DNA of 64,000 nt. Source: Candidatus Flemingiibacterium sp. Its GTDB lineage: Bacteria; Bacillota; Clostridia; Oscillospirales; CAG-272. The stretch spans positions 11,345 through 75,344 of the forward strand of contig JAZNAL010000026.1 of the NCBI GenBank assembly GCA_045586505.1, read 5' to 3'. Of this stretch, positions 12,366 through 49,243 are shown piece by piece; the stretch's first letter is position 1, and the number at the start of each line of letters is the position of its first letter. Made by a program: the position numbers and the translations under genes. Below the pieces are notes generated by a model, which worked only from the letters and a program-made list of their open reading frames with translations, was not told the DNA's origin and did no database searches.

Positions 12366-12374
12366 AATATAAGA

Positions 12375-20430: not shown

Positions 20431-20543
20431 AGTCTGAAAAACGGGGCGTTTTTCAGACAAGGAAGTCTTGTGCCTTTCGCATCTCTTATGCGATTTCCAT
20501 ATGGATACCGGCACAAAACCTCGCAATCGTTGGAAAGGAATGG
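20430..20543 (+). repeat. Intercistronic repeat element, copy A (between livG and livF)
   Basis: By eye it is about four-fifths identical, with one indel, to 39436-39550 in the same orientation. Both copies start aagYctgaaaaa and end gaaaggaatgg. Shared predicted hairpins are described in the findings. Confidence 0.8.
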
Positions 20544-20551
20544 CTATATCT

Positions 20552-21262
20552 ATGGCAATGCTTGAAGTAAAAGACCTTGAAGTCTACTACGGCGTGATCT
20601 GCGCGCTTAAGGGTATCAGCTTCGAGGTAAACGAGGGAGAGATCGTCACTCTCATCGGCGCAAACGGTGCGGGTAAAACCACCACCATGCAGAGTGTCGT
20701 CGGACTTATCCCCACAAGAGCGGGAAGCGTCACCTTTGACGGTCACGACATCACAAAGACTCCCTGCCACAAAATAGTGCATCTCGGTATGACACAGGTG
20801 CCCGAGGGAAGACGCATCTTCCAGGAGCTGACCGTTTACGAGAACCTCCTTATGGGTGCATACTCCATGAAGGATCAGTCGGGCTTTAAGGCGGACATCG
20901 ACGCGGTATATACCCGATTCCCACGCCTTGCGGAGAGACGCAACCAGATCGCGGGTACGCTTTCGGGCGGTGAGCAGCAGATGCTTGCTATGGGCAGAGC
21001 GATCATGAGTCATCCCAAGCTTTTAATGCTGGATGAGCCGTCAATGGGTCTGTCCCCTCTGCTTGTGGATCAGGTATTTGAGATCATCAAGGACATCAAC
21101 AAGGATGGCACCACCATTCTTCTGGTCGAGCAGAATGCGGGCAAGTCGCTTGCGATCTCCGACCGAGCATACGTGCTGGAAAACGGCAGGATCGTCCTCA
21201 CCGGTACAGGTACGGAGCTTGCCGCAAGCGAGATGGTCAAGAAGGCTTATCTCGGCGGCTGA
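20552..21262 (+). CDS. livF: Branched-chain amino-acid ABC ATP-binding protein (LivF type)
   Basis: MLEVKDLEVYYG... with Walker A GANGAGKTT and Walker B LLMLDEPSMGL. The start is ambiguous among ATG 20540, 20552 and 20558. The track start at 20468 reads through the non-coding repeat element. Confidence 0.85.
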   Translation: MAMLEVKDLEVYYGVICALKGISFEVNEGEIVTLIGANGAGKTTTMQSVVGLIPTRAGSVTFDGHDITKTPCHKIVHLGMTQVPEGRRIFQELTVYENLLMGAYSMKDQSGFKADIDAVYTRFPRLAERRNQIAGTLSGGEQQMLAMGRAIMSHPKLLMLDEPSMGLSPLLVDQVFEIIKDINKDGTTILLVEQNAGKSLAISDRAYVLENGRIVLTGTGTELAASEMVKKAYLGG

Positions 21263-21306
21263 GTTATAATGGAGCTTCGCACAAAACTTATCTGTAGTGA
21301 AAAATG

Positions 21307-21345
21307 GGGCTGATGCAGCTTGTAACTGCATCAGCCCTCTGTTTT
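21307..21345. terminator. Bidirectional intrinsic terminator (liv operon + / membrane protein gene -)
   Basis: A 12-bp perfect stem, GGGCTGATGCAG-cttgtaa-CTGCATCAGCCC, is flanked by GAAAAAT on the 5' side and TCTGTTTT on the 3' side. Confidence 0.85.
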
Positions 21346-21351
21346 ACAAAC

Positions 21352-22290
21352 TCAAAACAAATTCGGAATTATGTCTGCAATTAAATATCCCGACACAAAT
21401 GAAACTGCATTTGCAACAAACGCATACACCACACACATCGCTCTACTGGGCGGATCACTGCTGACGCGCTTTAAGCATACAGCATAGATCACAGCCTCCA
21501 AAATAAATACGATAAGTTCAAAAAAAATGTAAGCAGCAACATAAGCAAGGAATCCGGATCTGTAGCTAATAATATTAAGCGCCGTATTCAGTATCACCTG
21601 CGTCACCGTATTGACACCTATGATCAGCCGAAGCTCTTTTTTCTCTCTGAAACCAAATGCTAAAGCGATGCCTGATTCAATAAGTATGGTGATAATGATA
21701 CGTGCTGCCAACGTAATCAGCTCTACTTTATAATTATATGAGCGCTGCGCACAAAGCAGTGTGCTTGCAGTCACAGGCTCACTGTATGCCACACCGTGCT
21801 CCGTAAAAGACCCGTCGGGGATATCTACCGAAAAATAACTGTCAAAGGCATAGCGTTCATATATTCCGCTTGTCATGAACATATTATACTCGGGAAAATA
21901 CAGGAGGATCTTGAACGAATCCGGCGGATAATATGTCCATGCAAGCTCATTGTCCTCGCCGATCTCCCATGCCATCTGCAAGAAGTAGTAGCCGTCAGGA
22001 TCCTTGTAGTTCGCGAAAAGCTGCCATGTGTCGGGATCAAGCTCTGCGCCCTGATAATTCCCGGTGTGATACGCATATTTCTCATTGCCGTCCCAAACCG
22101 AATGCGGGCCGGTGGAATGGTCTTGACTCAAAAGTGTACCGTAGCACGCTGTATCCCCAAGTCCCGTGAATGTGATGCGTACAGATGGCTTTGGACCCAT
22201 GTCAGCGCTGACACTAAGAGAGAAAAACGCTGATAATATGATAATGCAAATAAAAATGCTTAGTATTCGGCGGTATTCTATTCCCTTCAT
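21352..22290 (-). CDS. Membrane protein of unknown function (secreted N-terminal domain plus a C-terminal multi-TM domain)
   Basis: AAGGAG lies 6 nt upstream of ATG 22290. The signal/anchor is ILSIFICIIILSAFFSLSVSA. A roughly 170-aa Tyr/Asp/Trp-rich extracytoplasmic domain is followed by about 4 TM helices. I recognised no motif. Confidence 0.55.
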   Translation of the reverse strand: MKGIEYRRILSIFICIIILSAFFSLSVSADMGPKPSVRITFTGLGDTACYGTLLSQDHSTGPHSVWDGNEKYAYHTGNYQGAELDPDTWQLFANYKDPDGYYFLQMAWEIGEDNELAWTYYPPDSFKILLYFPEYNMFMTSGIYERYAFDSYFSVDIPDGSFTEHGVAYSEPVTASTLLCAQRSYNYKVELITLAARIIITILIESGIALAFGFREKKELRLIIGVNTVTQVILNTALNIISYRSGFLAYVAAYIFFELIVFILEAVIYAVCLKRVSSDPPSRAMCVVYAFVANAVSFVSGYLIADIIPNLF

Positions 22291-28631: not shown

Positions 28632-30317
28632 ATGGACAACAACTATTTAGCCGATTTGCTCTTTCCAAATATCAAAACGCTTCCCGAGGATATGGAAGCT
28701 CGTTATCCGAGGCGACAGCTCCCCGAGGGAGCTAAGGTAACACGTTTTGCCCCCAGCCCCACGGGATTTGTACACTTCGGCGGTCTGTTCCCCTCCACCG
28801 TCGGCGAAAGACTCGCTCACCAGAGCGGTGGTGTATTCTACCTCCGCATCGAGGACACCGATGCCAAGCGCGAGGTCGAGGGTGCTGCAGAGGGACTTAT
28901 AAAGACACTCGCCACCTACGGCATCAACTTCGACGAGGGTGCAATACTTGATGAAAACGGAAATGTTTCCGATCACGGCATATACGGCCCCTACAAGCAA
29001 AGCCAGCGCGGCGAGATATATCAGACCTACGCTAAGCAGCTTATCCGTGAGGGCAAGGCTTACCCCTGCTTCACCACTGAGGAGGAGCTTGAGGAATTAG
29101 CTCAGGTCAACAAGAAGGAAGAGCTCAAAAACACCGATTGGCAGGCAGAGGCAGAATCACGCCGCGCCGAGATGCTGGCTCGCCGCAATTTCACCATCAA
29201 AGAGGTGGAAGAGCATCTGAGGGCAGGTCACCCCTTCGTGGTTCGCATCCTCGCCGACGGTGATCCCGAAAAGAAGACCAAATTTACCGACCTTATCAAG
29301 GGCAATATCGAGGTGCCCGAGAATGACGAGGACTTCGTGCTTCTCAAATCAGACGGAATCCCCACCTACCACTTCGCACACGCTGTGGATGATCATCTAA
29401 TGGGCACCACCCACGTCATCCGCGGCGAGGAATGGCTTCCCAGTTTAGCTAAGCACATCATGCTGTTCCGCTTCCTCGGCTTCAAGCTGCCGAAGTATAT
29501 GCACATCGCGCAGATCATGATGCTTGACGAATCGGGAAACAAGAAGAAGCTTTCAAAGCGCGATATGGGCGCAAACATGGACGACTACACCCGCATGGGC
29601 TACTGCCCCGAGGCAGTGTGCGAGTACATCATGACCCTCCTCAACTCCAACTACGAGGAGTGGCATGCACAGAACGCGGATAAGCCCTATACCGACTTCC
29701 CGTTCAACATCAAGAAGATGTCCACCTCCGGCTGTCTCTTTGATTTTGACAAGCTGAATGACGTATCGAAGAACGTCATCTCCCGCATGGACGCGAAGAC
29801 GGTAACCGAAAAGGTCACCGAGTGGGCGCTTGCGTTTGATCCGGAGTTCGGGAAAGCTCTTGCGGCTGATCCCGCATTTACAGAGAAGATCTTCGCCATC
29901 GGCAGGGGCGGTAAGAAGCCGAGAAAAGACCTTGCCACATGGGCGGATGCAAAGCCTTACATGGGCTTCTTCTACGATGAGTTCTACGCTCTCCAGGATA
30001 CCATCCCCGAGACCTTCGCAAAGGACGACATCAAGGCTACCCTCTCGAAGTTCCTTGAGACCTACGATGCCGCAAGCGACATGAACGTATGGTTCGACAA
30101 GGTTAAGGCAATTGCCGACGAGCTGGGTTACGCTTCCGACATGAAGGCATACAAGGCTGATCCCACTGCATTCAAGGGCAGCGTTGCCGACATCAGCATG
30201 TTCATACGCGTTGCAGTCACCGGCAAGATGAACGCCCCCGATCTGTATACGGTTATGCAGATTCTTGGCAAGGACAAGACTGCCGAGAGAATAAACAAAA
30301 CTATTGCGTCGCTTTAA
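28632..30317 (+). CDS. gltX: Glutamate--tRNA ligase (long, 561-aa form)
   Basis: Class-I aaRS. The HIGH-region variant is FAPSPTGFVHFGG and the KMSKS-type loop is KLSKRD. The IEDTD block is typical of GluRS. Confidence 0.85.
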   Translation: MDNNYLADLLFPNIKTLPEDMEARYPRRQLPEGAKVTRFAPSPTGFVHFGGLFPSTVGERLAHQSGGVFYLRIEDTDAKREVEGAAEGLIKTLATYGINFDEGAILDENGNVSDHGIYGPYKQSQRGEIYQTYAKQLIREGKAYPCFTTEEELEELAQVNKKEELKNTDWQAEAESRRAEMLARRNFTIKEVEEHLRAGHPFVVRILADGDPEKKTKFTDLIKGNIEVPENDEDFVLLKSDGIPTYHFAHAVDDHLMGTTHVIRGEEWLPSLAKHIMLFRFLGFKLPKYMHIAQIMMLDESGNKKKLSKRDMGANMDDYTRMGYCPEAVCEYIMTLLNSNYEEWHAQNADKPYTDFPFNIKKMSTSGCLFDFDKLNDVSKNVISRMDAKTVTEKVTEWALAFDPEFGKALAADPAFTEKIFAIGRGGKKPRKDLATWADAKPYMGFFYDEFYALQDTIPETFAKDDIKATLSKFLETYDAASDMNVWFDKVKAIADELGYASDMKAYKADPTAFKGSVADISMFIRVAVTGKMNAPDLYTVMQILGKDKTAERINKTIASL

Positions 30318-30344
30318 AATCAAGCAACCGAAAGGAATATAAAA

Positions 30345-31997
30345 ATGGCTATCGAAGCATCAAACTTTATTGAAGAATTTATAAACGAAGACCTCGCCGA
30401 GGGCAAGGTCAACACCGTCCACACACGTTTCCCGCCGGAGCCTAACGGCTACCTGCACATCGGTCACTGCAAGGCACTTGCAATCGACTTTGGCACCGCT
30501 AAGAAGTACGGTGGTATGTGCAATCTCCGTATGGACGATACCAACCCCGCAAAGGAAGACACTGAATACGTCGACGCCATCAAGGAGGATATCCACTGGC
30601 TGGGCTTTGACTGGGAGGATCGCTTCTTCTACGGCTCCGACTACTTTGACAAGGACTACGAGTTTGCAGTTGAGCTTATCAAAAAGGGACTCGCATACGT
30701 GTGCGAGCTGACCGCCGATCAGATGGACGAATACCGCGGCGACCTTCAGAACCCCGCAAAATCCCCCTGGCGTGATCGTCCCATTGAGGAAAGCCTTGAT
30801 TTGTTCGAGCGCATGAAAAACGGTGAATTCCCGGACGGCAAGTACACCCTGCGCGCCAAGATCGATCTCGCATCGGGCAACTTTTGGATGCGTGACCCCG
30901 TAATCTACAGAATCAAGCATATGCACCATCACCGCCACGGTGACAAGTGGTGCATCTACCCCACCTACGACTTCGCTCATCCTATCCAGGACGCACTTGA
31001 GGGCATCACTCACTCGCTCTGCTCGCTGGAGTTTGAGATCCACCGTCCGCTTTACAACTGGGTAATCGAAAACGTCAGCGTTCCGCACAAGCCCCGTCAG
31101 ATCGAGTTTGCACGTCTCAACATCACAAATACCGTGCTGTCCAAGCGCTTCCTGCGCGGACTCGTGGAAAGCGGCCAGGTAGACGGCTGGGACGACCCCC
31201 GTATGCCCACACTGTGCGGTCTGCGCCGCCGTGGCTATACCGGCGCTTCCATCGTGGACTTCTGCGGACGCATCGGCGTTGCAAAGGCGGACAGCCTTGT
31301 TGACCTCCGCCTGCTTGAGGCCTGCATCCGTGACGAGCTCAACGAGACCGCTCCCCGCCGTGTTGCGGTACTTGATCCCATCAAGGTCGTGATCGACAAC
31401 TATCCCGAGGACAAGGTTGAAGAGTTCGAGCTTCCCAATCATCCTCAGCACCCTGAAATGGGCACTCGAAAGGTCAAGTTCACCCGCGAGCTGTATATCG
31501 ACGCCGAGGACTTCGCCGAGGTTCCGCCTCCCAAGTTCTTCCGCCTTAAGCCCGACGGTGAGGTTCGCCTCATGGGCGCTTATATCATAAGGTGCGGCGA
31601 GATCGTAAAGAACGCCGACGGTACCATCAAGGAGATCCACGCTACCGCCGATCTCGAAACGGGCAACGGCAATCCCGTGGACGGAAGAAAGATCAAGGGC
31701 ACCATCCACTGGCTGTCCGCTGACAACACTATGGATGCGGAAGTTGTTCTCTACGAGAATCTTCTTACACTCGAGGACCCGTCCAAGCTCCCCGAGGATA
31801 AGCAGTACACCGATTATATCAACCCCAACTCCAAGACCGTCATCAAAACAGCGAAATTGGAGCCTTCACTCGGCACCGCAAAGCCGGGCGACAGATTCCA
31901 GTTCGTCCGTTGCGGTTACTTCTCCGTTGACACAAAGAATCCCGGTGTATTCAACCGCGTTGTGACCTTAAAAGACGGCTACAAGCCCGCAAAATAA
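30345..31997 (+). CDS. glnS: Glutamine--tRNA ligase
   Basis: RFPPEPNGYLHIGHCKA (HIGH), VLSKRF (KMSKS), and a GlnRS-type C-terminal beta-barrel region. The protein is 550 aa. Confidence 0.92.
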   Translation: MAIEASNFIEEFINEDLAEGKVNTVHTRFPPEPNGYLHIGHCKALAIDFGTAKKYGGMCNLRMDDTNPAKEDTEYVDAIKEDIHWLGFDWEDRFFYGSDYFDKDYEFAVELIKKGLAYVCELTADQMDEYRGDLQNPAKSPWRDRPIEESLDLFERMKNGEFPDGKYTLRAKIDLASGNFWMRDPVIYRIKHMHHHRHGDKWCIYPTYDFAHPIQDALEGITHSLCSLEFEIHRPLYNWVIENVSVPHKPRQIEFARLNITNTVLSKRFLRGLVESGQVDGWDDPRMPTLCGLRRRGYTGASIVDFCGRIGVAKADSLVDLRLLEACIRDELNETAPRRVAVLDPIKVVIDNYPEDKVEEFELPNHPQHPEMGTRKVKFTRELYIDAEDFAEVPPPKFFRLKPDGEVRLMGAYIIRCGEIVKNADGTIKEIHATADLETGNGNPVDGRKIKGTIHWLSADNTMDAEVVLYENLLTLEDPSKLPEDKQYTDYINPNSKTVIKTAKLEPSLGTAKPGDRFQFVRCGYFSVDTKNPGVFNRVVTLKDGYKPAK

Positions 31998-32024: not shown

Positions 32025-33983
32025 ATGAAAAAATTAGCAGTATTATTATGCACAGCCCTTCTTCTTTCGATGATTCCTCTGTCTGCATCGTCATATCCGA
32101 GAGCATTCTGGAGTCTCAACGACAAATACATCGCCGCAATTAACGCAGGCGATGATGCCGGCGTTGTCACCTACGCTACCCAGATCTGCACACTGTTTGA
32201 TGGACGCACAGATGAGATCGCAGTCAACAATTTAGCTTGGAAATACTATGAACTCGCCAACTCCCATGACCGTCTCGGCAACTACGAGGCGTCCGGGGAG
32301 GCTTATGCAAAATGCATACCCTATCTTGAGCTGCTTTCAACCTATGGTCAAAATTGGAGCGAAAATATCAAGATCGCCTCAACAAAGGCAAAGCTCTACG
32401 AAAGCACGCTTGACCTCTACCGTACATCCTACGGCTATCAGACCTACTTCGGCGCTATCAACGAAAAGCGTATGGGCGTTCTCTACGGCGTCAACCACGA
32501 CGGCGGCACCCAGGATCAGCTGAAAAAGGATTCGCTGGTGCTGATCTATCAGAATTTCGGTGACACCGAGATCATTCCGTTCAATAAGATCCAGCTCAAA
32601 GCCGCCGAAGAGGACGGCTGTGCGGTGGAGTTTGCACTCAATCTCCCCGGTGAGGGCTCTCAGATCACACAGATACAGTCTCAGACCGATTACATCTTAA
32701 AGGTCATAGATATGCTCAATTCCGTTGACACTCCGATCTTCCTGCGCTTTGCTGCGGAGATGGATGTATGGTCTGTTCCCTGTGCTCCCGAGGACTATAT
32801 AAACGCTTTCAGATATGTGGCAGACCTTGTTCATGCCAACACCGATCACGTTGCAATGGTATGGAGTCCCACCTACGCTTCCGGCTGGAACATCAACAGA
32901 CACGATTTCTATCCCGGTGATGAGTATGTAGACTGGATCGGCGTTTCGCTGTATCTTCAGACCTATTTCAACGCCCGCGACAACTGGTCCACACAGGAAA
33001 AGATCGCACTCCCCTGCTACTTCGGCGGCGATGCGGCAAATCCCGTAAAGATAATGGACGATCTCATCTCCACCTACGGTGACCGCAAACCTTTTATCAT
33101 CTCCGAGTCGGGCGCATCCCACCTGTGGCGCAGGCTGAACGGTCAGTCTGCAAGCCAGGACACCACCTCCTGGGCAATCCACAGACTTACAATGCTTTAC
33201 AAGTATCTTCCCATGGCGTATCCGCAAATCAAGGCTATCGCCCATTTTGATAAGGTTATGCCCTCCGAGAACTGCGACTTCGCGCTCTCCTCTAATCCGT
33301 CGCTTCAGATGACATACCTGGACCTCGTCAAGGATGACGCGTTCATTCAGAACTCTTACAATGACGAAGCAAATTCCACCTATCAGAAGTTGGAGGATTA
33401 CTTCCTCGCCGAGCAGTGCATCACGGAATTCCGTACTCTTGCGATGTACTACGGTCACGATAATGTTACCGTCACCTACCTTATCGACGGCGTGCCCGCG
33501 GCATCCAGCGCTATGCTTCCCTACACGGTCAGCATAGACCTTTCAAATTATGCCGAGGGTAATCATACCGTCACTATCCGCGCCGAGGAAAACGGCGTGA
33601 TTCTGGGCGAGCACAGCTACACCATGGCACTCTCAAAGTCCTCCGCAATCTATGTAAACGGCGAGCTTCTGGAGCTTCCGCAGAAGCCTGTTACCGTTGA
33701 GGGCACCACCCTCGTTCCGCTTCGCGCCATCGTCGAGAAGCTTGGCGGCAATGTAGAATGGATCAACGAGATCCGTGAGATCATCATCACTGACGCCGAG
33801 ACCGAGATCAAGCTCCGTATCGGAAGCTACGATATGATCACAAACGGTGAAACCTCAACTCTTCTTGTTCCCGCGCGACTCGTCAACTCCTCCACCTATA
33901 TCCCCCTGCGCGCGGTCTCTGAGGCAATGAAGGCAACAGTCGCATGGCATGGCGAAACAAGGTCCATAACCATCGATAAATAA
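32025..33983 (+). CDS. Secreted GH26-like glycoside hydrolase domain protein with a C-terminal copper-amine-oxidase-N-type (stalk) domain
   Basis: It has a signal peptide. The central segment FLRFAAEMDVW ... VDWIGVSLY ... IISESGASH resembles the GH26 RxxHEMNG / xEFG blocks. The C-terminal LVPLRAIVEKLGGNVEW and YIPLRAVSEAMKATVAW are typical stalk-domain repeats. Confidence 0.45.
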   Translation: MKKLAVLLCTALLLSMIPLSASSYPRAFWSLNDKYIAAINAGDDAGVVTYATQICTLFDGRTDEIAVNNLAWKYYELANSHDRLGNYEASGEAYAKCIPYLELLSTYGQNWSENIKIASTKAKLYESTLDLYRTSYGYQTYFGAINEKRMGVLYGVNHDGGTQDQLKKDSLVLIYQNFGDTEIIPFNKIQLKAAEEDGCAVEFALNLPGEGSQITQIQSQTDYILKVIDMLNSVDTPIFLRFAAEMDVWSVPCAPEDYINAFRYVADLVHANTDHVAMVWSPTYASGWNINRHDFYPGDEYVDWIGVSLYLQTYFNARDNWSTQEKIALPCYFGGDAANPVKIMDDLISTYGDRKPFIISESGASHLWRRLNGQSASQDTTSWAIHRLTMLYKYLPMAYPQIKAIAHFDKVMPSENCDFALSSNPSLQMTYLDLVKDDAFIQNSYNDEANSTYQKLEDYFLAEQCITEFRTLAMYYGHDNVTVTYLIDGVPAASSAMLPYTVSIDLSNYAEGNHTVTIRAEENGVILGEHSYTMALSKSSAIYVNGELLELPQKPVTVEGTTLVPLRAIVEKLGGNVEWINEIREIIITDAETEIKLRIGSYDMITNGETSTLLVPARLVNSSTYIPLRAVSEAMKATVAWHGETRSITIDK

Positions 33984-36720: not shown

Positions 36721-36852
36721 TCAGTTATCCGCGATCAGCTTTGCCGTTTGAGCGCAATCACGATCAGCGGTATCAGTCCACTCACGCAGTACGGCGATAA
36801 GCTTTGCTCCTATCCTGCCGCCCTGACCGTCGATTATAACTGTCTTCTTCAT
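36721..36852 (-). CDS. 43-codon ORF resembling only the N-terminus of DUF3842-type proteins (possible gene remnant)
   Basis: The ATG overlaps the amidohydrolase stop in TAATG. MKKTVIIDGQGGRIGAKLIAVLRE resembles, from memory, the M-x-I-x-VIDGQGGGIG start of DUF3842 proteins, which are about 120-140 aa. Here the ORF stops after 43 codons. Confidence 0.35.
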   Translation of the reverse strand: MKKTVIIDGQGGRIGAKLIAVLREWTDTADRDCAQTAKLIADN

Positions 36853-37652
36853 TATTTATTCCCCAACAGCTTTATGGCATTTTCGCTACAGATTTTCTTC
36901 ATCAGCTCATCGGATAGTCCGAGGGATTCAACATACTCGTGGCCAAGATTCATTCCATACCACGGGAAGTCGCTGCCGAACAGTATTTTCTCGGGATCGT
37001 GATTGTTAAGCATCCGCGCATATTTGACAGGCTCAAGCCCGAACATCGGTGCAAGAGAGGTCTCGATCCACAGATTCTTTCCGATAAGCAGTCGCTCCGC
37101 CTCATCCCACTGCTTGCAGGCGCCCATATGCGCCGCGATAAATCTCAGCTCGGGGAATTTTTTCAGCACGTTAAGTATCCGCTCAGGCGTGCAGTGAATG
37201 AGATCGGGGGAGATAAAATCCCAGCCGGAATGAGTGATCAGAAACAGATCGTTTTCGATGCAAGCCTTGTATATGGGATCAAATTTCGCATCGTCCACAA
37301 GTACGCCCATGTAGTCGGGATGTATCTTGATGCCGCGGATACCGGCATCCGCAAGACGTCGCGCCTCCTCTGCGATATTATCGCTGTCGGGGTTAAGCGA
37401 GCCCAGCGCGTACAGTCGGTCATAGTTGGAATTGACCTCGATGGCGAAATTGTTGACATTTGTCTGCTGCTTTGGATTTGTGGCAATATTAAGTATGACC
37501 GCGCGGTCGATTCCCCACTCATCCATGCGGGAAATGAGGCTTGATACAGTACCGTCACCGTATGCTTCGATTCCGCCGATGCCCGCGAGCTTGGGGATCG
37601 CCTTTTCGGCGACCTTATCGGGAAATGCGTGGGTATGAAAATCTATTATCAT
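36852..37652 (-). CDS. Amidohydrolase-2 family TIM-barrel metal-dependent hydrolase
   Basis: The N-terminus MIIDFHTHAFP supplies the metal-binding HxH. Later conserved His/Asp residues lie in GIKIHPDY, ITHSG and FGSDFPW. Confidence 0.8.
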   Translation of the reverse strand: MIIDFHTHAFPDKVAEKAIPKLAGIGGIEAYGDGTVSSLISRMDEWGIDRAVILNIATNPKQQTNVNNFAIEVNSNYDRLYALGSLNPDSDNIAEEARRLADAGIRGIKIHPDYMGVLVDDAKFDPIYKACIENDLFLITHSGWDFISPDLIHCTPERILNVLKKFPELRFIAAHMGACKQWDEAERLLIGKNLWIETSLAPMFGLEPVKYARMLNNHDPEKILFGSDFPWYGMNLGHEYVESLGLSDELMKKICSENAIKLLGNK

Positions 37653-37796
37653 GGCAATAATCCTCGTTTATACGTTTTCTATATTGTACCACGGTTTCGG
37701 TGCGGAATAAACCCGATTTTGTAAACATTATCCGGCTATTGGTCAAAAAAGCATATACTTATATGAAAAATCAATGTAAAAAAAGCAAATTGCATA

Positions 37797-37825
37797 TTGC
37801 AAAATTCGAGATTTTGGTTTATAAT
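37797..37825 (+). promoter_or_regulatory. Sigma-A promoter of the decarboxylase cluster
   Basis: TTGCAA (37797-37802), a 17-nt spacer, then TATAAT (37820-37825). It leaves a roughly 105-nt leader. Confidence 0.65.
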
Positions 37826-37937
37826 ATATTTATAATGGGGGAGAATGGTATTTATGTGTCAAAATGTGATGTTCTTGACATAGTAACACCGCGATTCTCC
37901 GGAAAATAACAAGACTTTTCAACTTGGAGGTAAATAA

Positions 37938-39422
37938 ATGGAGAACAAAACGCAAAACAGTATGCCGAATGTTATCTCGGCTGCAGAGCTGCGTGCGATC
38001 GCCGAGAGTGAAGCATCCACCGCAAAAAGCCGCATCACAGCACTTTTTGACGCAGGAACCTTCGCTGAGACAAGTGCTTTCGCGCACAAGCTTGCCGCAG
38101 AATTCGGCGGTAGCGACAACGGCGAGCTTGAAGGCGTAGTTACCGGCTACGGTGCTATCGACGGCAGACTCGTATTCGCTTTCGTTCAGGATTTTTCCAG
38201 AATGAAGGGCGCAGTAGGCGCTATGCACGCAAAGAAGATCTGCGCGCTTTACGACCTCGCTGTGAAGAACGGCGCACCCGTGATCGGTATTTTCGACAGC
38301 GCAGGTGCTTATGTTATGGAGGGCGTTGAGGCTCTCGCAGGCTACGGTAAGATCATGAAAAAGGTATCCGATGCTTCCGGCGTGATTCCTCAGATTGCAG
38401 TTATTGCAGGCAACTGCGGCGGTGCTATGGCTACTGTGGCATCCATGTTCGATATCACCGTCGGCGCCAAGACCGGTGCTTTCTATGTAAATCCCCCCTT
38501 CGTATTAAACGAGCTTGACAAGAAGGCTGAGCTCGGTAAGATCGAGACCGCGGCAAAGAGCGGTCAGATAAGCGTAGTATGCGACACCGACACCGATGCG
38601 CTTGCATACGTAAGAAAGCTCCTTTCCTACATTCCTCAGAACAACGCGGACGGTACCGCTTACTCGGCTACCACCGACGAGATCAACCGTCTCACCCCCG
38701 ATGTTGCATCCATTATTGCATCCGAGGGCTACAAGATGGCAGACGTCATCTCCGCAATCTCCGATGACGCCGCATTCCTCGAGCTTTCGGAAGAGTATGC
38801 AAAGTCCATGCTCACCGGCTTTATTACGTTAAACGGCATGGTAGTCGGAATCGTCGCAAACAATCCCGCACACATCGGCGGCAAGATCTGCGGCGGTGCG
38901 GCTAAGAAGGCGGCAAGATTCGTTTCCTTCTGCGACTGCTATAAGATCCCGCTTCTCACACTCGTTGACACCGAGGGCTACGAGGTATCCGTTGAGGCTG
39001 AAAAGGCTCAGTACGGTGCAGCTCTTGCAAAGCTCGCTTCCGCATACGCATCAAGCGACAACGCGAAGGTTACCGTAGTGCTGGGCAAGGCTTACGGCGC
39101 GGCTTACACCCTCATGGGCTCTAAATCCATCGGCGCGGATATCGCACTTGCTTGCGAGACCGCCAAGATCAGCGCAATGCCCACAGCGAGCGCAGTCGCT
39201 TTCGCTTGGAACGACAAGGTCACCGACAACGCAAAGCGCGGTGAAGTCGAGGCACAGTGGGACAGCGTAATGGCATCTCCCGTCGTTGCCGCAAAAGCAG
39301 GAGAGATCGACGACATCATTTCTCTTGATGAGCTTCGTCAGCGCGCATCCGCCGCATTTGAAATGCTCGGCGCAAAGAACGCACTTTGCCAAAAGAAGCT
39401 CCACAACAACCTTCCTTTATAA
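37938..39422 (+). CDS. Acyl-CoA carboxyltransferase subunit (MmdA/GcdA/PccB family; divergent)
   Basis: GGAGG lies 7 nt upstream. It has two carboxyltransferase half-domains: GAVGAMHAKKICALYDLAVKNGAPVIGIFDSAGAYVMEGV and PLLTLVDTEGYEV...GKAYGAAY. The usual DSGGARIQEG block reads DSAGAYVMEG. Confidence 0.8.
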   Translation: MENKTQNSMPNVISAAELRAIAESEASTAKSRITALFDAGTFAETSAFAHKLAAEFGGSDNGELEGVVTGYGAIDGRLVFAFVQDFSRMKGAVGAMHAKKICALYDLAVKNGAPVIGIFDSAGAYVMEGVEALAGYGKIMKKVSDASGVIPQIAVIAGNCGGAMATVASMFDITVGAKTGAFYVNPPFVLNELDKKAELGKIETAAKSGQISVVCDTDTDALAYVRKLLSYIPQNNADGTAYSATTDEINRLTPDVASIIASEGYKMADVISAISDDAAFLELSEEYAKSMLTGFITLNGMVVGIVANNPAHIGGKICGGAAKKAARFVSFCDCYKIPLLTLVDTEGYEVSVEAEKAQYGAALAKLASAYASSDNAKVTVVLGKAYGAAYTLMGSKSIGADIALACETAKISAMPTASAVAFAWNDKVTDNAKRGEVEAQWDSVMASPVVAAKAGEIDDIISLDELRQRASAAFEMLGAKNALCQKKLHNNLPL

Positions 39423-39435
39423 TCGGGAGGGCATA

Positions 39436-39550
39436 AAGCCTGAAAAATGGATCATTTTTCAGACAATTAAGTTTTGTGCCTTTTGCATCTTCCATGCGAA
39501 TTTCCAAACGGAAACCACCACAAAACTTCATATTCGTTAGAAAGGAATGG
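39436..39550 (+). repeat. Intercistronic repeat element, copy B (between the carboxyltransferase and gamma-subunit genes)
   Basis: It is homologous to 20430-20543 in the same orientation, with the same hairpin layout and the same GAAAGGAATGG end. Confidence 0.8.
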
Positions 39551-39921
39551 TCATAAAAATGACTATAAATCCGCTTTTCCTTACCGAAGTCATCAAATAT
39601 GATGAACCTATGAGCTTTGCTGACGCCATCCCCTTTGGTCTTGAGACCGTGATTCTCGGCATGGGCGTAATTTTCTCGGTACTCATCATTCTTTGGGCTG
39701 TGCTTTCGGTGTTCAAGCTTGTATTCTACAAAAAGCCTTCCGATGTCTCTGAAGCTCCGGCACCCGCTCCCGCCCCTGCAGCAACTGCTAAGCCAGAGCC
39801 TGCCACCGCAGCCGATGACGCGGAGCTTGTAGCTGTCATCACCGCCGCCATCGCTGCTATGATGGACGCTCCCCAGACATCCTTCAGAGTCGTATCCTTC
39901 AGACGTACGGCAAAAAAATAA
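39547..39921 (+). CDS. Na+-decarboxylase small membrane subunit (OadG/MmdD type)
   Basis: A single TM helix (LETVILGMGVIFSVLIILWAVLSVF) is followed by an Ala/Pro-rich linker, and the gene lies in a decarboxylase operon. The start is ATG 39547 or ATG 39559 (MTINPLF). Confidence 0.7.
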   Translation: MVIKMTINPLFLTEVIKYDEPMSFADAIPFGLETVILGMGVIFSVLIILWAVLSVFKLVFYKKPSDVSEAPAPAPAPAATAKPEPATAADDAELVAVITAAIAAMMDAPQTSFRVVSFRRTAKK

Positions 39922-39943
39922 AATTATAAAGGAGAATTTTACA

Positions 39944-40321
39944 ATGAGAAGATTCAGTGTAACCGTTAACGGTAATGTATATGATGTAGAAGTTGAAGAG
40001 CTCGGCGCAGGCGTATCTGCTCCCGTCGCAGCTCCCGCTGCAGCTGCACCCGCTCCCAAGGCAGCTCCCGCTGCTCCCAAGGCTGCCGCTCCCGCAGGCA
40101 CTGCAGGCGCTGTAACCGTTTCCGCTCCCATGCCCGGCAACATCCTCAAGGTTAATGTTACCGTTGGTCAGACCGTAAAGAGCGGAGACGTTCTCTGTGT
40201 ACTTGAGGCTATGAAGATGGTAAACGATATTCCCGCTCCCAAGGATGGCACCATCGCATCTATCAACGTTCAGAAGGGCGCTTCCGTCAACTCCGGCGAC
40301 GTTCTCATTACCATGAACTGA
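39944..40321 (+). CDS. Biotin carboxyl carrier protein (MmdC / 1.3S-type)
   Basis: AAGGAG is the RBS. An Ala/Pro linker is followed by a biotinyl domain carrying LEAMKMVNDI (biotin-Lys in AMKM). Confidence 0.9.
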   Translation: MRRFSVTVNGNVYDVEVEELGAGVSAPVAAPAAAAPAPKAAPAAPKAAAPAGTAGAVTVSAPMPGNILKVNVTVGQTVKSGDVLCVLEAMKMVNDIPAPKDGTIASINVQKGASVNSGDVLITMN

Positions 40322-40350
40322 TACCTCGCAAAGTTTAAAGAGGTGCTGTC

Positions 40351-41619
40351 ATGTTAGAAACCATATACAACTTTCTTGAAACCACAGGCGTTGCCAGGCT
40401 CTTCACAGACGCAAACGGCAATGCACTTGCACCCGATTTCTGGTGGAAGACCATTGTCATGTGGTGCATCGCATTTACGCTCATCTATCTTGCGGTAGTC
40501 AAGAAGTTTGAGCCCCTGCTCCTGCTTCCCATCGCAACAGGTATGCTCCTCGCAAATCTCCCCGGTGCAAACCTTATTCACACCGACTTTTTCTTCGATG
40601 ATTACTACATCGAAAACGCACTTATTTCAGCCGAGCAATTAGCAGCAAACGACGGTCATGTCCCGCTCTCCATGATGCTCAAAGAGGTATTCAACAAGGG
40701 CGGTCTCATCGATATCCTCTACCTTGGAGTAAAGCTTGGCATCTATCCTTCGCTCATCTTCATGGGCGTCGGCGCGATGACCGACTTCACCTCGCTTATC
40801 GCTAATCCCAAAAGTCTTCTCATGGGTGCCGGCGCACAGCTTGGTGTATTCGTGGCATTCTTCGGCGCACTGCTCCTCGGCTTTACGCCCATGGAAGCAG
40901 GCTCAATCGGTATCATCGGCGGCGCGGACGGTCCCACGGCTATCCTTGTCACAAAGACCCTGGCGCCCCACCTCCTCGGAGCTATCGCTATCGCAGCATA
41001 CTCCTACATGGCGCTGATCCCGATCATTCAGCCTCCCTTCATGAAGCTGCTTACCACCAAGAAGGAGCGCGAGATCGTTATGACCGCACTCCGCCCGGTT
41101 AGTAGGACCGAGCTCATCATATTCCCCATCGTTGTTACCGTAGTCGTTGCCATCATCGTCCCCGATGCGGCTCCCCTGATCGGCTTCCTCATGTTCGGTA
41201 ACCTCATGAACGTCTGCGGCGTTACCGACAGAATTTCAAAGACGGCGCAGAACGAGCTTATGAACATCATGACCATCTTCCTCGGCGTATCCGTAGGTGC
41301 TACCGCAAATGCAGAGAACTTCCTCGCCGTTCAGACTCTCATGATCATCGCTCTCGGTCTTACCGCATTCTGCATCTCCACCTGCGGCGGACTTATCACT
41401 GGTAAGATCATGTGCTTTGTCACCAGGGGCAAGATCAACCCTCTCATTGGTTCCGCAGGCGTTTCCGCTGTTCCCATGGCGGCGCGTGTTGCTCAGGCAG
41501 AGGGTCAGAAGGCAAATCCCGCGAACTTCCTGCTTATGCACGCAATGGGTCCGAACGTCGCAGGCGTTATCGGCTCCGCTGTTGCGGCAGGCGTATTCCT
41601 TTCGATGTTCGCGAAATAA
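40351..41619 (+). CDS. Sodium-ion-translocating decarboxylase beta subunit (OadB/MmdB/GcdB)
   Basis: GAGGTG is the RBS. It is a polytopic membrane protein with the family block GIIGGADGPTAI and a conserved C-terminal region, GSAGVSAVPMAARV. Confidence 0.9.
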   Translation: MLETIYNFLETTGVARLFTDANGNALAPDFWWKTIVMWCIAFTLIYLAVVKKFEPLLLLPIATGMLLANLPGANLIHTDFFFDDYYIENALISAEQLAANDGHVPLSMMLKEVFNKGGLIDILYLGVKLGIYPSLIFMGVGAMTDFTSLIANPKSLLMGAGAQLGVFVAFFGALLLGFTPMEAGSIGIIGGADGPTAILVTKTLAPHLLGAIAIAAYSYMALIPIIQPPFMKLLTTKKEREIVMTALRPVSRTELIIFPIVVTVVVAIIVPDAAPLIGFLMFGNLMNVCGVTDRISKTAQNELMNIMTIFLGVSVGATANAENFLAVQTLMIIALGLTAFCISTCGGLITGKIMCFVTRGKINPLIGSAGVSAVPMAARVAQAEGQKANPANFLLMHAMGPNVAGVIGSAVAAGVFLSMFAK

Positions 41620-41659
41620 CTCCCTTTACATAAATCCGATATAATGGAGGAAAACATAA

Positions 41660-43057
41660 ATGGCTAAAGTAAAAATTACAGAAACCGTCCTGCGTGACTC
41701 GCACCAGTCTCTTGTTGCGACCCGTATGACGACTGAAGAAATGCTTCCCATTCTCGAAAAGATGGATGCCATCGGCTACCATTCTCTCGAAGCATGGGGC
41801 GGCGCTACCTTCGACTCCTGCATGAGATTCCTTAACGAGGATCCCTGGGAAAGACTCAGAAGGATCCGTGACAAGGTTAAGAACACCAAGCTCCAGATGC
41901 TGTTCCGCGGTCAGAACATCCTCGGATACCGCCACTATGCGGACGACGTTGTTGAATACTTCGTACAGAAGTCCATCGCAAACGGCATCGACATTCTCCG
42001 TATTTTCGACGCACTGAACGATCCCAGAAACTTAAAGACCGCGATAAACGCAACCAAGAAGGAAGGCGGTCATGTTCAGGCGGCTATTTCTTACACCACC
42101 GGTCCCGTTTACGACACCGAATATTACACCAAATACGCACGTCAGCTTGAAGAGATGGGCGCAGATTCCATCTGTATCAAGGACATGGCAGGTCTTCTCA
42201 AGCCCTACGATGCGTACGATCTCGTAAAGGCTATCAAGGAAACCGTCAAGGTTCCGATCCAGCTTCACACCCACTACACCGCAGGTGTTGCTTCCATGAC
42301 CCTTATCAAGGCTATCGAAGCAGGCGTTGACGTAGTGGACACCGCAATCTCCCCCATGGCTATGGGTACCTCCCAGCCTCCCACAGAGCCGCTGGTAGCA
42401 TCCCTTGCAGGCACCGAGTACGACACCGGTCTCGACCTTGCAAAGCTCGATGAGATCTCCAAGCACTTCATGCCTCTGCGCGAGAAGTACATGGAAAGCG
42501 GTCTTCTCGACCCCAAGGTGCTGAAGGTAGACGTAAACGCACTCCTCTATCAGGTACCCGGCGGAATGCTCAGTAACCTGGTTTCTCAGCTTAAGCAGGC
42601 AGGTAAGTCCGACAAGTTCATCGAGGTTCTTGAGGAAGTACCGCGCGTAAGAGCAGACGCAGGTTATCCTCCGCTTGTAACCCCCTCCAGCCAGATCGTT
42701 GGTACTCAGGCAGTATTCAACGTTATCATGGGCGAGCGCTACAAGAACGTTACCAAGGAATTCAAGGGTCTGGTTCGCGGTGAGTACGGTAAGTCTCCCA
42801 TGCCCATAAAGCCCGAGTTCCAGAAGCAGATCATCGGCGACGCAAAGCCTATTACCTACCGTCCCGCAGACGATCTGAAGCCTGAGCTTGATGATCTCCG
42901 CGAAAAGGTTAAGCCCTGGGCAATCCAGGACGAGGATGTACTCTCCTACGCACTCTTTGAGCAGGTAGCAACCAAGTTCTTTGAGTGGAGAAAGAATCAG
43001 CAGTACGGCATCGACGCAGATCATGCTGATGCCGAAAATAAGATCCACACTGTTTAA
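41660..43057 (+). CDS. Oxaloacetate/pyruvate carboxyltransferase (OadA N-terminal / transcarboxylase 5S / PycB type) lacking its own biotin domain
   Basis: GGAGG is the RBS. ITETVLRDSHQSL...LEAWGGATFD...LQMLFRGQN is the HMGL-like TIM barrel of OadA/PycB. The protein ends at 465 aa with no AMKM motif. Confidence 0.88.
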   Translation: MAKVKITETVLRDSHQSLVATRMTTEEMLPILEKMDAIGYHSLEAWGGATFDSCMRFLNEDPWERLRRIRDKVKNTKLQMLFRGQNILGYRHYADDVVEYFVQKSIANGIDILRIFDALNDPRNLKTAINATKKEGGHVQAAISYTTGPVYDTEYYTKYARQLEEMGADSICIKDMAGLLKPYDAYDLVKAIKETVKVPIQLHTHYTAGVASMTLIKAIEAGVDVVDTAISPMAMGTSQPPTEPLVASLAGTEYDTGLDLAKLDEISKHFMPLREKYMESGLLDPKVLKVDVNALLYQVPGGMLSNLVSQLKQAGKSDKFIEVLEEVPRVRADAGYPPLVTPSSQIVGTQAVFNVIMGERYKNVTKEFKGLVRGEYGKSPMPIKPEFQKQIIGDAKPITYRPADDLKPELDDLREKVKPWAIQDEDVLSYALFEQVATKFFEWRKNQQYGIDADHADAENKIHTV

Positions 43058-43069: not shown

Positions 43070-43103
43070 CGAGGCGACGCTTATGGCGCCGCCTCGCGTT
43101 TTA
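43070..43103 (+). terminator. Intrinsic terminator of the decarboxylase operon
   Basis: A GC-rich hairpin, CGAGGCG...CGCCTCG, is followed by CGTTTTATGTACTTTTGTT. Confidence 0.7.
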
Positions 43104-43227
43104 TGTACTTTTGTTGAATAAAAATGGGGCTAACACAAAGTGAAAACATAATTGGTATCATGCCAATAAACAAGCTTGCTCTAATCTCCGACAACAGTAT
43201 ATTTCCTATGGTGTAACCCCATTAAAG

Positions 43228-43266
43228 CAAAAAATCTCGGTGTGACCTCGCGGTCACACCGATTTT
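43228..43266. terminator. Intrinsic terminator of the pepF-lipoprotein operon (minus strand; symmetric)
   Basis: An 11-bp perfect stem, TCGGTGTGACC-tcgc-GGTCACACCGA. On the minus strand it is followed by GATTTTTTGCTTT. Confidence 0.85.
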
Positions 43267-43267
43267 C

Positions 43268-43702
43268 TTATTTGCCGTACTGGGACTTGACCCATTCGGT
43301 CACATCCACAAACTGACGGTAATCATTCTCTGCGGGATATTTCACATAGATCACCGAAAAGGTCTCAGTGCTTGAATATATCTCACAGCCGTCGCACATC
43401 TGTGCGGTGGTAAGCTCCTCAGTGGGAACTCGGTTGGGATCCTCTCCCTCGGTACTGCCCGAGTATTCAAAGCCCGCGGGAAGCTCGTCGGTGAGGAGCT
43501 GTCCGTCCTGCAGATAGTCGTAGAAATCATAGCCGTACACACAGCCGTTATAATACACCAGCGCTCGCTGGATCTCGCCACTGGGATACCCCGTTTCGGT
43601 ACGCTGTACATCGGTTGTCTCACTGCCGTTCACAAATCTGCCGCAGGAAGCAGCCGTGAGGCATAAAACAGTGAGCAGTAATGCCATCAAACGTCTTTTC
43701 AT
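43268..43702 (-). CDS. Small lipoprotein of unknown function
   Basis: The signal peptide has a lipobox, LTAASC. The ATG lies 1 nt after the pepF stop. The protein is 144 aa and I recognised no family. Confidence 0.6.
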   Translation of the reverse strand: MKRRLMALLLTVLCLTAASCGRFVNGSETTDVQRTETGYPSGEIQRALVYYNGCVYGYDFYDYLQDGQLLTDELPAGFEYSGSTEGEDPNRVPTEELTTAQMCDGCEIYSSTETFSVIYVKYPAENDYRQFVDVTEWVKSQYGK

Positions 43703-46951: not shown

Positions 46952-49243
46952 TCAGTTGCCTGCCTTGTAGTAGTTGATAAGACAGCCGCAGAGGATAATA
47001 GTGCGCTCGTCATCGGTAAGCTCGCCCATCTTCAGGGTGATCGCCTTGACGGAGCCGTCGCTCTTTATGATATATGCGGGGAACTCATACTTCGCCGCTT
47101 CAACAGCCCCACGGATATCCGGTACATAGATGTGATCGCCTACCGCAAAAACGTCTGCACTTTCGTAGAGGAACGGAAGCATACCCCAGTTGATAAGGTT
47201 GGAGCGATAGCGCTTGGTTGCGTATTCGACAGCGATGTTAGCCCAGCCTCCGAGCACCTTCTGGCAGGATGCCGCCTGCTCACGCGCGGAGCCGTCACCG
47301 GGCTTGTTGGCGTATACCACGCTTCCGATGCCCACATTCTTCGAATCAACCCCAGGCTTGATCTCACGGAGCTTTGCAAATACAGGAGCAAGCTCGCCCG
47401 CGTCGGTATTCTCGCCGTTCTGTCTTGCCTTCTCGAAGGTCTGCACCGCCTTGGCACGTCCAACATAGGCAGGATCCTTTCGGGAGAGTGCGAACTCGGA
47501 CAGCTTTAAGGGATTGGAGCGATAGGACGATGTCTCACCCGAGGGGATAAGCTCGTCGGTGGTAGTTACGGGGTCAGTGATGACCGATGCCACGCGAAGG
47601 AGCAGATCCTCAGTCAGCTCGGACATTACAGGCCAGTCGGCGATGTTGGGACCGATCACAAGGTCTGCCGCTGTATCCGCCTTTCCGTAGCCCTTGTACA
47701 CGCGGTGATCGTATACGGTAGAATCAAATTTATAATTGGGTGTGGTGTATTCCACCTCGATCTCGGTTGCGGGAGTGAGGATACCACCGTTACGCGCGGT
47801 TGCCGCGATGGAACGCGCATCCATAAGCGCTACTGCCGCGATCTGACCGTTTCCGGGCTTTGAGCCCTCGCGGTTGGGGAAGTTTCTGGTAGAATGACGG
47901 ATGGAGAGACCGCCATTCGCGGGAACGTCACCCGCACCGAAGCAGGGACCGCAGAATGCGGTTCTGAGCGTCACGCCCGCTTCCATCAACTTCGCCGCCG
48001 AGCCGTTTCTGACAAGCTCAATATATGCGGGCTGGCTTGCGGGATATGCGGAAAGGTTAAACGCACCGCATCCGGTGGACTGCCCCGCCAGAATATCCGC
48101 CGCCGCAACAAGGTTATCAAACGTACCGCCGGCACAGCCTGCGATAACGCCCTGATCCACCTTTACGCCGTCCTTTGTGATCTTATCGGTAAGCGAGAGC
48201 TTGATGTTCGGATTGTCGAGCTGTTCAGCTACACTGAGTTCTACCTCGCGGAGAATATCCGCCGCATTGTCGATAAGATTTCTTACGGTATAGGTGTTTG
48301 ACGGATGGAACGGAAGCGCAATCATAGGCTCAACGCTCGAAAGATCCACCTTTACCACGCCGTCATAGTATGCAAGCGAGCCGGGAGCCAGCTTCTTGTA
48401 ATCGTCGGATCTGCCGTGGAGATCAAAATAGCGCTTGGTCTCTTCATCGGTCACCCAGATCGATGAGAGGCAGGTTGTCTCGGTAGTCATAACATCGATT
48501 CCGTTACGGAATTCGATGGGCAGGCTTGCAATACCGTCACCCACAAATTCCAGCACCTTGTTTTTAACAAAGCCGTTCTTGAATACCGCGCCGATTATCG
48601 CCAGCGCCACGTCCTGCGGACCGACACCGATCTTGGGCTTGCCGGTCATATGCACCGCGATCACCTCGGGGCGCTTAATGTCGTAGGTGCGGCAGAGGAG
48701 CTGCTTTACAAGCTCGGGACCGCCCTCACCGATCGCCATGGTACCAAGTGCACCGTAGCGGGTATGGGAGTGGGAGCCGAGGATCATGCGTCCGCACCCG
48801 CTCATCATCTCACGCATATAGGAATGGATGACCGCGATATGTGCGGGAACGTAGATGCCGCCGTACTTCTTCGCCGCGGACAAACCGAATACATGGTCGT
48901 CCTCGTTGATGGTACCGCCGACAGCGCAGAGGCTGTTATGGCAGTTGGTCAGAACATAGGGAATCGGGAATTTTTCAAGTCCGCTTGCACGAGCGGTCTG
49001 AATGATGCCGACATAGGTTATATCATGAGATGCCATCGCGTCGAATCTGATGCGAAGATCCTCGTCGTTCTTACCTGTATTGTGAGCGGTAAGTATCTCG
49101 TACGCCATAGTGTTTTTCGCGGCTTCTTCCTTGGAAATGCCGTCCTTGCCCAGCGCCGCAAGCTGTGATGCGGCATTGGCGTCGTCTTCGATGATCGTAT
49201 TGCCGTATGCGAGATATGCGCCGCCGTGTATGAGTTCTACCAT
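46952..49243 (-). CDS. Aconitase-family Fe-S hydro-lyase (aconitate hydratase)
   Basis: GGAGG lies 9 nt upstream. Aconitase-type blocks are [12 protein letters not shown] (DSHT-like), CGPCFGAGD (cluster Cys pair), [15 protein letters not shown], and [10 protein letters not shown] in the swivel domain. Confidence 0.8.

Follow-up and report, generated by a model that had tools for sequence, protein, structure and literature searches.

Genes for two carboxyltransferases, one biotin carrier and a sodium pump subunit in a conserved operon of uncultured gut Clostridia

How might a single biotin carrier and a single Na+-pumping subunit serve two different carboxyltransferases (CTs)? This question is raised by a five-gene operon in Candidatus Flemingiibacterium sp. 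(Clostridia, Oscillospirales), located on the + strand at positions 37938-43057 of a 64,000-nucleotide stretch of contig JAZNAL010000026.1 (assembly GCA_045586505.1), which is referred to below as the window. The co-directional genes encode, in order, a divergent 12S/PccB-type acyl-CoA CT, an OadG/MmdD-like membrane anchor (gamma), a biotin carboxyl carrier protein (BCCP), an OadB/MmdB-type subunit (beta) and a split OadA/5S-type oxaloacetate-pyruvate CT. An earlier note on this DNA had described the same five genes in the same order, and all of its open reading frame coordinates and gene calls were confirmed by the profile matches in Table 1. Its premise, that each Na+ decarboxylase uses one CT and that the soluble transcarboxylase consists of 12S, 5S and 1.3S subunits, agrees with a review in which the characterised Na+ decarboxylases are single-substrate enzymes with one CT (PMC8085960). 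Full-text literature searches returned no description of a beta-containing cluster with two CTs. We found that the architecture is recurrent, and that the data favour functional coupling of the two CTs over two independent decarboxylases.

Composition of the operon

Judged by gene content, genes 2-5 should encode all parts of a split (Firmicute-type) oxaloacetate decarboxylase (OAD) Na+ pump. They supply the same four parts as the known split enzyme (OadA, OadD, OadB, OadH/OadG; EC 7.2.4.2), to which the window operon adds a 12S-type acyl-CoA CT as the first gene; a further difference is that no citrate-lyase or citrate-transport context was present in the 64-kb window. A separate BCCP and a one-helix anchor reportedly complete the Firmicute split OAD set, as described in work on OadA/B/D/H of Enterococcus faecalis. 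The OadA-type CT passed the curated cutoff of NF008985, "oxaloacetate decarboxylase subunit alpha", and scored higher on that model than on the 5S equivalog model NF008984 (606.7 bits, below the cutoff of 827). Its PDB matches were PycB (5ks8, 536 bits), OadA (2nx9, 522) and 5S (1rqb, 501), and the metal and carbamyl-lysine motifs LRDSHQS (residue 11), IKDMAG (173) and HTHYT (203) were present. The protein contains HMGL-like and PYC_OADA domains only, which bears out the statement in the earlier note that it lacks a biotin domain of its own.

In the BCCP, an Ala/Pro linker joins an N-terminal MRRFSVTVNGNVYDVEVEE segment to the biotinyl domain, which carries EAMKM; we take the N-terminal MRRFSVTVNGNVYDVEVEE to resemble the 1.3S assembly peptide. 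Its best NCBIfam model was MmdC, at 128 bits (below the cutoff of 200). In the gamma protein, a single transmembrane helix at the N-terminus is followed by a Pro/Ala linker and an amphipathic segment at the C-terminus; the protein scored 36.7 on the MmdD equivalog model (below the cutoff of 150). In the alignment of beta with Salmonella OadB (6iva), residues E40, D203, Y229, R304, N311, N373, G377, S382, R389, N412 and S419 were all conserved. They include all residues that cryo-EM and mutagenesis of the Salmonella protein, StOadB, showed to be needed for Na+ binding or activity, among them E40, D203, R304, N311, S382 and N412 (PMC7274780).

The first gene product was harder to place. Its best PDB matches were PccB, 12S and archaeal "MmdA" structures, aligned end to end at 272-317 bits (317 for the PccB structure and 272 for 12S, 1on3), with only 36-39% identity to the solved 12S/PccB structures. 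On the mmdA model TIGR01117 it reached 374.5 bits against a cutoff of 998.8; for reference, the true methylmalonyl-CoA decarboxylase (Mmd) of Tepidibacter hydrothermalis (locus L119 among those fetched for comparison) scored 954.9, and the CT of locus L036 scored 903.1. This score, together with altered DSGGARIQEG, GPCAGGAVYSPA and KAYGGAY motifs, ruled out an MmdA equivalog. A glutaconyl-CoA decarboxylase was ruled out as well, since the GcdA structures 3gf3 and 1pix gave partial alignments of 74.5 and 47.9 bits, versus 317 for PccB.

The changes fall in three active-site blocks. At residues 120-129, DSGGARIQEG is replaced by DSAGAYVMEG with loss of the Arg, as the earlier note had pointed out; GPCAGGAVYSPA is replaced by GNCGGAMATVAS, and KAYGGAY[D/I/C]VM by KAYGAAYTLM. 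In the numbering of Streptomyces PccB, the replacements place Ala at both oxyanion-hole positions, G183 and G419, and Thr at the specificity position D422. The variant motifs recurred in the 120 closest homologues, down to ~47% identity (KAYGAAYTLM was exact in 45 of the 120), and also turned up in a broader group of non-canonical CTs represented in the database. Many scaffold positions of the CoA and biotin sites stay invariant. Compared with twelve Flemingiibacterium orthologues, dN/dS was 0.05-0.13 for this CT, 0.07-0.13 for beta, 0.014-0.067 for the 5S-type CT, 0.06-0.19 for the BCCP and 0.11-0.5 for gamma; purifying selection thus acts on all five genes. A pseudogene or decaying gene was ruled out by the dN/dS of the CT and the clade-wide conservation of its variant motifs. 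Because of these same two observations, the divergent CT has the look of an active enzyme whose chemistry has changed rather than of one in decay.

Table 1. Features of the operon and its flanks (window coordinates)
Feature	Coordinates	Strand	Remarks
Divergent 12S/PccB-type acyl-CoA CT	37938..39422	+	494 aa; PF01039 Carboxyl_trans, E 2e-95
OadG/MmdD-like membrane anchor (gamma)	39547..39921	+	124 aa; PF04277 OAD_gamma, E 1.4e-18; TIGR01195 49.3 vs cutoff 36.05
BCCP	39944..40321	+	125 aa; PF00364, E 4e-22; EAMKM at residue 88
OadB/MmdB-type beta subunit	40351..41619	+	422 aa; PF03977 OAD_beta, E 3e-155; TIGR01109 475.7 vs cutoff 190.6
Split OadA/5S-type oxaloacetate-pyruvate CT	41660..43057	+	465 aa; HMGL-like and PYC_OADA domains; NF008985 802.5 vs cutoff 718
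Sigma-70-type promoter-like site TTGCAA-17-TATAAT	37797..37825	+	consensus scan, 10/12 matches
Conserved noncoding element TATAATGGGGGAGAATGGTATTTAT (25-nt form TATAATGGGGNAGAATRGTRTTT)	37831..37855	+	at or just 3' of predicted transcription start
GC-rich hairpin and T-run	43070..43104 (hairpin 43070-43096)	+	13 nt after stop codon; one A-C stem mismatch on + strand
Perfect 11-bp hairpin, T-runs on both strands	43237..43272 (hairpin 43237-43262)	both	bidirectional terminator shared with convergent gene 43268-43702 (-)
Amidohydro_2 (PF04909) gene, divergent to CT gene	36852..37652	-	266 aa; Pfam 118 bits

Recurrence of the gene order and its genomic context

The closest genomic loci belonged to Candidatus Flemingiibacterium metagenome-assembled genomes from gut and rumen (Clostridia incertae sedis), with a best identity of 95% for the first protein. 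The earlier note had proposed a survey of how widespread the five-gene order is, and this survey found the order in 29 fetched loci; these are not phylogenetically independent and correspond to roughly ten lineages. Since the same order recurs in so many separate loci, the arrangement is not due to chance. It was present in all 17 Flemingiibacterium loci, where the first CT is 72-95% and the 5S-type CT 89-99% identical to the window proteins, and in unrelated uncultured Clostridia whose first CT is 43-58% identical (L028, L029, L030, L032, L037, L114, L117 and L118). Two loci combined the order with a canonical MmdA-like CT (L036 and L039; DSGGARIQEG, 903 bits on the mmdA model), and one with a third CT type (L042). 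Public annotation of the cluster is piecemeal, with labels such as "carboxyl transferase", "methylmalonyl-CoA carboxyltransferase" and "hypothetical protein".

In a neighbour-joining tree of the CTs, the window protein and those of the set running from L028 through L118 formed a divergent clade, separate from the canonical one. Within the canonical clade, a small subclade accompanied by a 5S-type CT (L120, L036 and L039) was sister to the Firmicute Mmd enzymes. A metagenome survey by generic peptide patterns yielded few new members of the divergent clade; 75 of its 80 loci carried canonical PccB/MmdA proteins and were used as the control set.

A CT of the divergent clade was always followed by a 5S-type CT, both in the window and in the 27 fetched loci of the clade. 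The association persisted where beta was lost: in L034, a gene for a Uma2-family endonuclease (6301-6852) occupies the beta slot and CT, gamma, BCCP and 5S-type CT are kept, although the 77%-identical sister locus L118 still has beta. L120 retains CT, BCCP and 5S-type CT with neither gamma nor beta. Because both L034 and L120 keep these three genes without beta, the cluster has as its constant core the three components by which a transcarboxylase is defined, with beta as an optional addition. A search with the L034 CT matched only uncultured Oscillospiraceae and Tepidibacter, the latter with a true Mmd.

As a separate observation, the slot between the BCCP and OadA-type genes is variable in L034 and L118; in the latter, an Ion_trans ion-channel gene (11761-12501) is inserted between the beta and OadA-type genes.

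The genomic context also separates these loci from plain decarboxylase clusters. Genes for mutase, MeaB, epimerase and succinate CoA-transferase were found in the flanks of 0 of the 29 five-gene loci and nowhere in the 64-kb window, whereas methylmalonyl-CoA pathway genes flanked 20 of the 23 plain CT...BCCP-beta loci. In the cultured T. hydrothermalis, for example, the Mmd genes sit behind those for CoA-transferase, mutase, MeaB and epimerase, and the classical 12S-5S loci L105 and L053 likewise adjoin methylmalonyl-CoA pathway genes. Even though the loci counted are not phylogenetically independent, so sharp a difference speaks against methylmalonyl-CoA being the acyl substrate. A plain methylmalonyl-CoA decarboxylase was accordingly disfavoured, by the lack of pathway linkage and by the mmdA-model score. 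The rest of the window is housekeeping in character (tRNA synthetases, ABC transporters, glutamate dehydrogenase, aconitase and NusA) and holds no pathway genes that would explain the operon.

Mmd (MmdA/D/C/B; EC 7.2.4.3) has the same order of CT, small anchor, BCCP and beta, with beta of the same family (TIGR01109), but the window operon differs from it in the low mmdA-model score (374 bits, against 955 for L119) and non-canonical motifs of its CT, in the additional OadA-type CT, and in the absence of epimerase, mutase or CoA-transferase linkage. Propionibacterium transcarboxylase (EC 2.1.3.1) has the same pair of CT folds, one small biotin carrier and no biotin carboxylase. Its classical gene order, 12S-5S-1.3S (seen in L105), differs from that of the window, and it is soluble, without gamma and beta, whereas the window operon contains OadB and OadG genes. 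The operon is a real, conserved variant of known biotin-dependent machinery, to judge from its sequence a split OAD pump with a second CT, of a distinct clade, that was either gained or kept.

Relatives without beta have been described in cultured organisms. The Clostridium thermocellum genes Clo1313_1526-1523, which have the same order without beta, are known as a putative oxaloacetate decarboxylase (PMC5414155, PMC8303734, PMC5887222), and oxaloacetate decarboxylase activity was not detected in this organism (PMC8303734, PMC5414155). In the iCth446 model, Clo1313_1523-1526 represent a putative transcarboxylase that makes malonyl-CoA, a standard acetyl-CoA carboxylase (ACC) being absent (PMC5414155, PMC8303734, PMC5887222). 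In Caldicellulosiruptor bescii, B5X54_RS07175-07190 are annotated as methylmalonyl-CoA carboxyl transferase, hypothetical protein, BCCP and oxaloacetate decarboxylase. Deletion of fapR derepresses this four-gene unit along with the fab operon; a FapR site is predicted for the unit, which has been called a malonyl-CoA biosynthesis unit (PMC7071700). Both clusters share the order CT, gamma-like or hypothetical small protein, BCCP and OadA-type CT with the window and lack OadB, which the window has between its BCCP and OadA genes. Matched by gene order, the window operon would be the beta-containing counterpart of the C. thermocellum cluster; L034, a beta-less relative from metagenomic data, belongs by its CT to the clade of the window.

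Three results lead us to favour coupling of the two CTs: the first CT is neither MmdA nor GcdA, the methylmalonyl-CoA pathway linkage is 0/29 versus 20/23, and the 5S-type CT is kept even without beta. The earlier note had offered two decarboxylases sharing the carrier and pump, a membrane-tethered transcarboxylase or a switchable complex. The balance now tilts, short of proof, towards coupled CTs of a transcarboxylase-like or switchable kind.

Possible routes of the carboxyl group

We tentatively favour, as plausible though short of probable, a membrane-bound, oxaloacetate-fed complex in which carboxybiotin would either be decarboxylated by beta with export of Na+ or be passed to an acyl-CoA, probably acetyl-CoA. 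The 5S/OadA-type subunit would load the biotin on the separate BCCP with the carboxyl group of oxaloacetate, attachment of the soluble part to the membrane would fall to the OadG-like protein, and OadB would decarboxylate the carboxybiotin, exporting Na+. By way of the divergent 12S-type CT, this carboxybiotin would alternatively deliver its carboxyl group to an acyl-CoA. The bulk of the oxaloacetate flux would then end in pyruvate and a Na+ gradient, and a smaller branch would carboxylate the acyl-CoA without ATP. Acetyl-CoA, which would yield malonyl-CoA, is preferred as the acceptor because of the analogy with the beta-less C. thermocellum and C. bescii clusters. The transcarboxylase is known to accept acetyl-CoA and oxaloacetate, giving malonyl-CoA and pyruvate (PMC8085960). 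That the five proteins associate in one complex, which way the carboxyl group moves and which acyl-CoA takes part are inferences on our side.

Several points weigh against this oxaloacetate-fed complex. The organism of the five-gene locus L113 has accC, accD, accA and acpP ~4 kb downstream of the cluster (19195-21533), and since a standard ACC set coexists with it, the L113 cluster is not an ACC substitute. The CTs of C. thermocellum and C. bescii may fall in the canonical L120/L036 subclade and not in that of the window. The window CT lacks the GGAR Arg that acetyl-CoA- and propionyl-CoA-specific CTs both keep, and has Ala at both glycine positions of the oxyanion hole; because of these two changes, the substrate or even the activity of the divergent CT may differ from what we propose. 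With beta present, moreover, carboxybiotin could be lost before reaching the CT.

The closest rival is that two decarboxylases share one pump, with the OadA-type CT feeding in the carboxyl group of oxaloacetate and the 12S-type CT that of methylmalonyl-CoA, malonyl-CoA or another carboxy-acyl-CoA; both would drive Na+ export, and transcarboxylation would be incidental. The intact and conserved beta and gamma fit this proposal, as does the order CT-anchor-BCCP-beta shared with plain Mmd-type clusters, and L036 and L039, which join a near-canonical MmdA (903 bits on TIGR01117) to beta and 5S, look like an Mmd with OadA added. Carboxyl transfer is also reversible, and its direction is not fixed by the sequences. 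We nevertheless consider a shared pump unlikely. Methylmalonyl-CoA pathway genes mark the Mmd loci and none of the five-gene loci, the first CT is far from MmdA (374 bits versus 955 for the true Mmd) and from GcdA, and ATP-consuming carboxylation is the only evident source of malonyl- or methylmalonyl-CoA. The divergent CT never occurs without the 5S-type CT and is kept with it even after beta loss, which would be unexpected for independent decarboxylases.

Two further proposals assign a different role to beta or to the first CT. In one, the Na+ gradient would drive beta backwards, so that CO2 would enter carboxybiotin and, without ATP, yield oxaloacetate from pyruvate and/or malonyl-CoA from acetyl-CoA, the direction being set by the Na+ motive force and the oxaloacetate supply. 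In 1984, Dimroth and Hilpert reportedly used a Na+ gradient to reverse OAD and Mmd in vitro. A biotin carboxylase is missing from the cluster although its carrier serves two carboxyl acceptors, and 28 of the 29 related loci with a 5S-type CT retain beta. Such reversal appears quite improbable to us, as the beta-less relatives (L034, L120 and C. thermocellum) manage without Na+-driven input and no generator of a Na+ gradient was seen in the 64-kb window. The other proposal treats the 12S-type protein as a non-catalytic hexameric scaffold for OadA dimers and the BCCP, which would leave the operon encoding an ordinary oxaloacetate decarboxylase, one of whose subunits is inactive. The alteration of three canonical active-site blocks, including the lost GGAR Arg and the Ala at both oxyanion-hole glycines, could be read in this way; the lack of oxaloacetate decarboxylase activity in C. 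thermocellum extracts was also counted here for the beta-less form, although it says nothing about the activity of the CT. A scaffold is, in our judgement, highly improbable. Lineages with 43-95% identity share the altered motifs, which are strongly conserved; many CoA- and biotin-site positions are invariant, and the dN/dS of the CT equals that of beta. Oxyanion holes use backbone amides, so a change from Gly to Ala need not abolish catalysis, and the split OADs of lactic acid bacteria, such as OadA/B/D/H of E. faecalis, are said to work without a 12S-type subunit.

Expression signals, neighbouring genes and significance

The sigma-70-type promoter-like site upstream of the CT gene is followed by a conserved noncoding element (Table 1), and both promoter hexamers were conserved in an upstream alignment of 22 loci. 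Across loci, the leader element has the consensus TATAATGGGGnAGAATrGTrTTT and lies in the intergenic region shared with the Amidohydro_2 gene; it matched the window once, versus 0.06 matches expected. Upstream of the CT gene it was exact in 15 loci and had at most one mismatch in L029, L030, L037 and L114. Element and promoter are kept together in L001-L017, L028-L030, L037 and L114, even where the proteins are only ~50% identical, whereas L034, L120 and the five-gene loci with a canonical CT, L036 and L039, lack the element. For most loci, minimum free energy folds of single sequences paired the element RNA with a downstream arm that varies, giving a recurrent 5' hairpin with modest z-scores; RNAalifold found no consensus structure in 16 leaders. 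The element may act as an operator, or it may supply the 5' arm of a hairpin at the 5' end of the mRNA. It is operator-like and was not matched to a FapR box. A known riboswitch or other RNA was rejected, as Rfam gave no match at the gathering threshold in the whole window and only chance-level matches (E<=10) in 37650-37960.

The CT gene has a GGAGG ribosome-binding site 8 nt upstream. The gamma start at 39547 lacks spacing to a Shine-Dalgarno sequence, whereas a second ATG at 39559 has a properly spaced AAAGGA. Because of this spacing, and because matches to gamma orthologues begin at residue 4-5, the true start of gamma is more likely to be 39559 than 39547. At the other end of the operon, the hairpin that closely follows the stop codon of the OadA-type gene is the probable operon terminator.

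The divergently oriented Amidohydro_2 gene adjoined the CT gene in 16 of the 17 Flemingiibacterium loci and in L029, L030/L113, L037, L114 and L117. This adjacency holds for nearly all divergent-clade loci and spans CT identities from 95% to 46%, and the other neighbours vary. The HxH/H/H/D metal ligands of the protein were invariant in 21 homologues. An AlphaFold2 (AF2) model (pLDDT 94.7) gave as the best PDB fold matches the non-oxidative decarboxylases and hydratases LigW, DHBA decarboxylases, IDCase, ACMSD and LigJ, which suggests a member of the metal-dependent (de)carboxylase/hydratase fold family. It is possible that this gene is a sixth, functionally linked one. In L116, an Amidohydro_2 homologue stands without the five-gene cluster. 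Tandem genes for a GluRS-like protein (561 aa) and GlnRS (550 aa) lie upstream of the operon at 28632-31997 (+), and the same pair is found near the Amidohydro_2 homologue of L116 (1553-4903), which hints that the cluster was lost or relocated there.

Other neighbours were noted in passing. A gene for a 763-aa aconitase, an enzyme of the oxaloacetate-linked citrate branch, lies 4 kb downstream of the operon at 46952-49243 (-) and is conserved beside the cluster in L003 and L004. The gene at 32025-33983 (+) encodes a 652-aa protein with a weak GH26 (mannanase-type) domain and a C-terminal Cu_amine_oxidN1 domain, which is likely to be a cell-surface glycoside hydrolase.

The favoured oxaloacetate-fed complex can be extended, in a form that we regard as speculative and rather unlikely, to a three-way hub. 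A membrane-tethered biotin carrier would visit the OadA-type site, the remodelled acyl-CoA site of a 12S-type clade not recognised before and the Na+-coupled beta. Carboxyl flow would be partitioned or even reversed by the Na+ motive force, the ATP-independent synthesis of malonyl-CoA (or another carboxy-acyl-CoA) would be tied to the ion gradient, and the Amidohydro_2 enzyme would act in the same pathway.

To our knowledge, the only enzyme in which a 12S-type and a 5S-type CT are paired is soluble. The operon joins two ideas, the Na+-pumping decarboxylase and the 12S/5S pairing. If the two CTs share one carrier, gut Clostridia would have an ATP-free route from oxaloacetate to malonyl-CoA or a different carboxylated acyl-CoA, and the excess carboxyl flux would become a sodium gradient. 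This would also make sense of the puzzling "oxaloacetate decarboxylase" cluster of C. thermocellum, which shows no decarboxylase activity and is of importance for the engineering of this biofuel organism. Conserved replacements at residues regarded as hallmarks of the family make the divergent CT clade a well-delimited subject for enzymology. The operon is common in uncultured Oscillospirales-type bacteria of the gut and rumen, and its function bears on how they conserve energy and build lipids.

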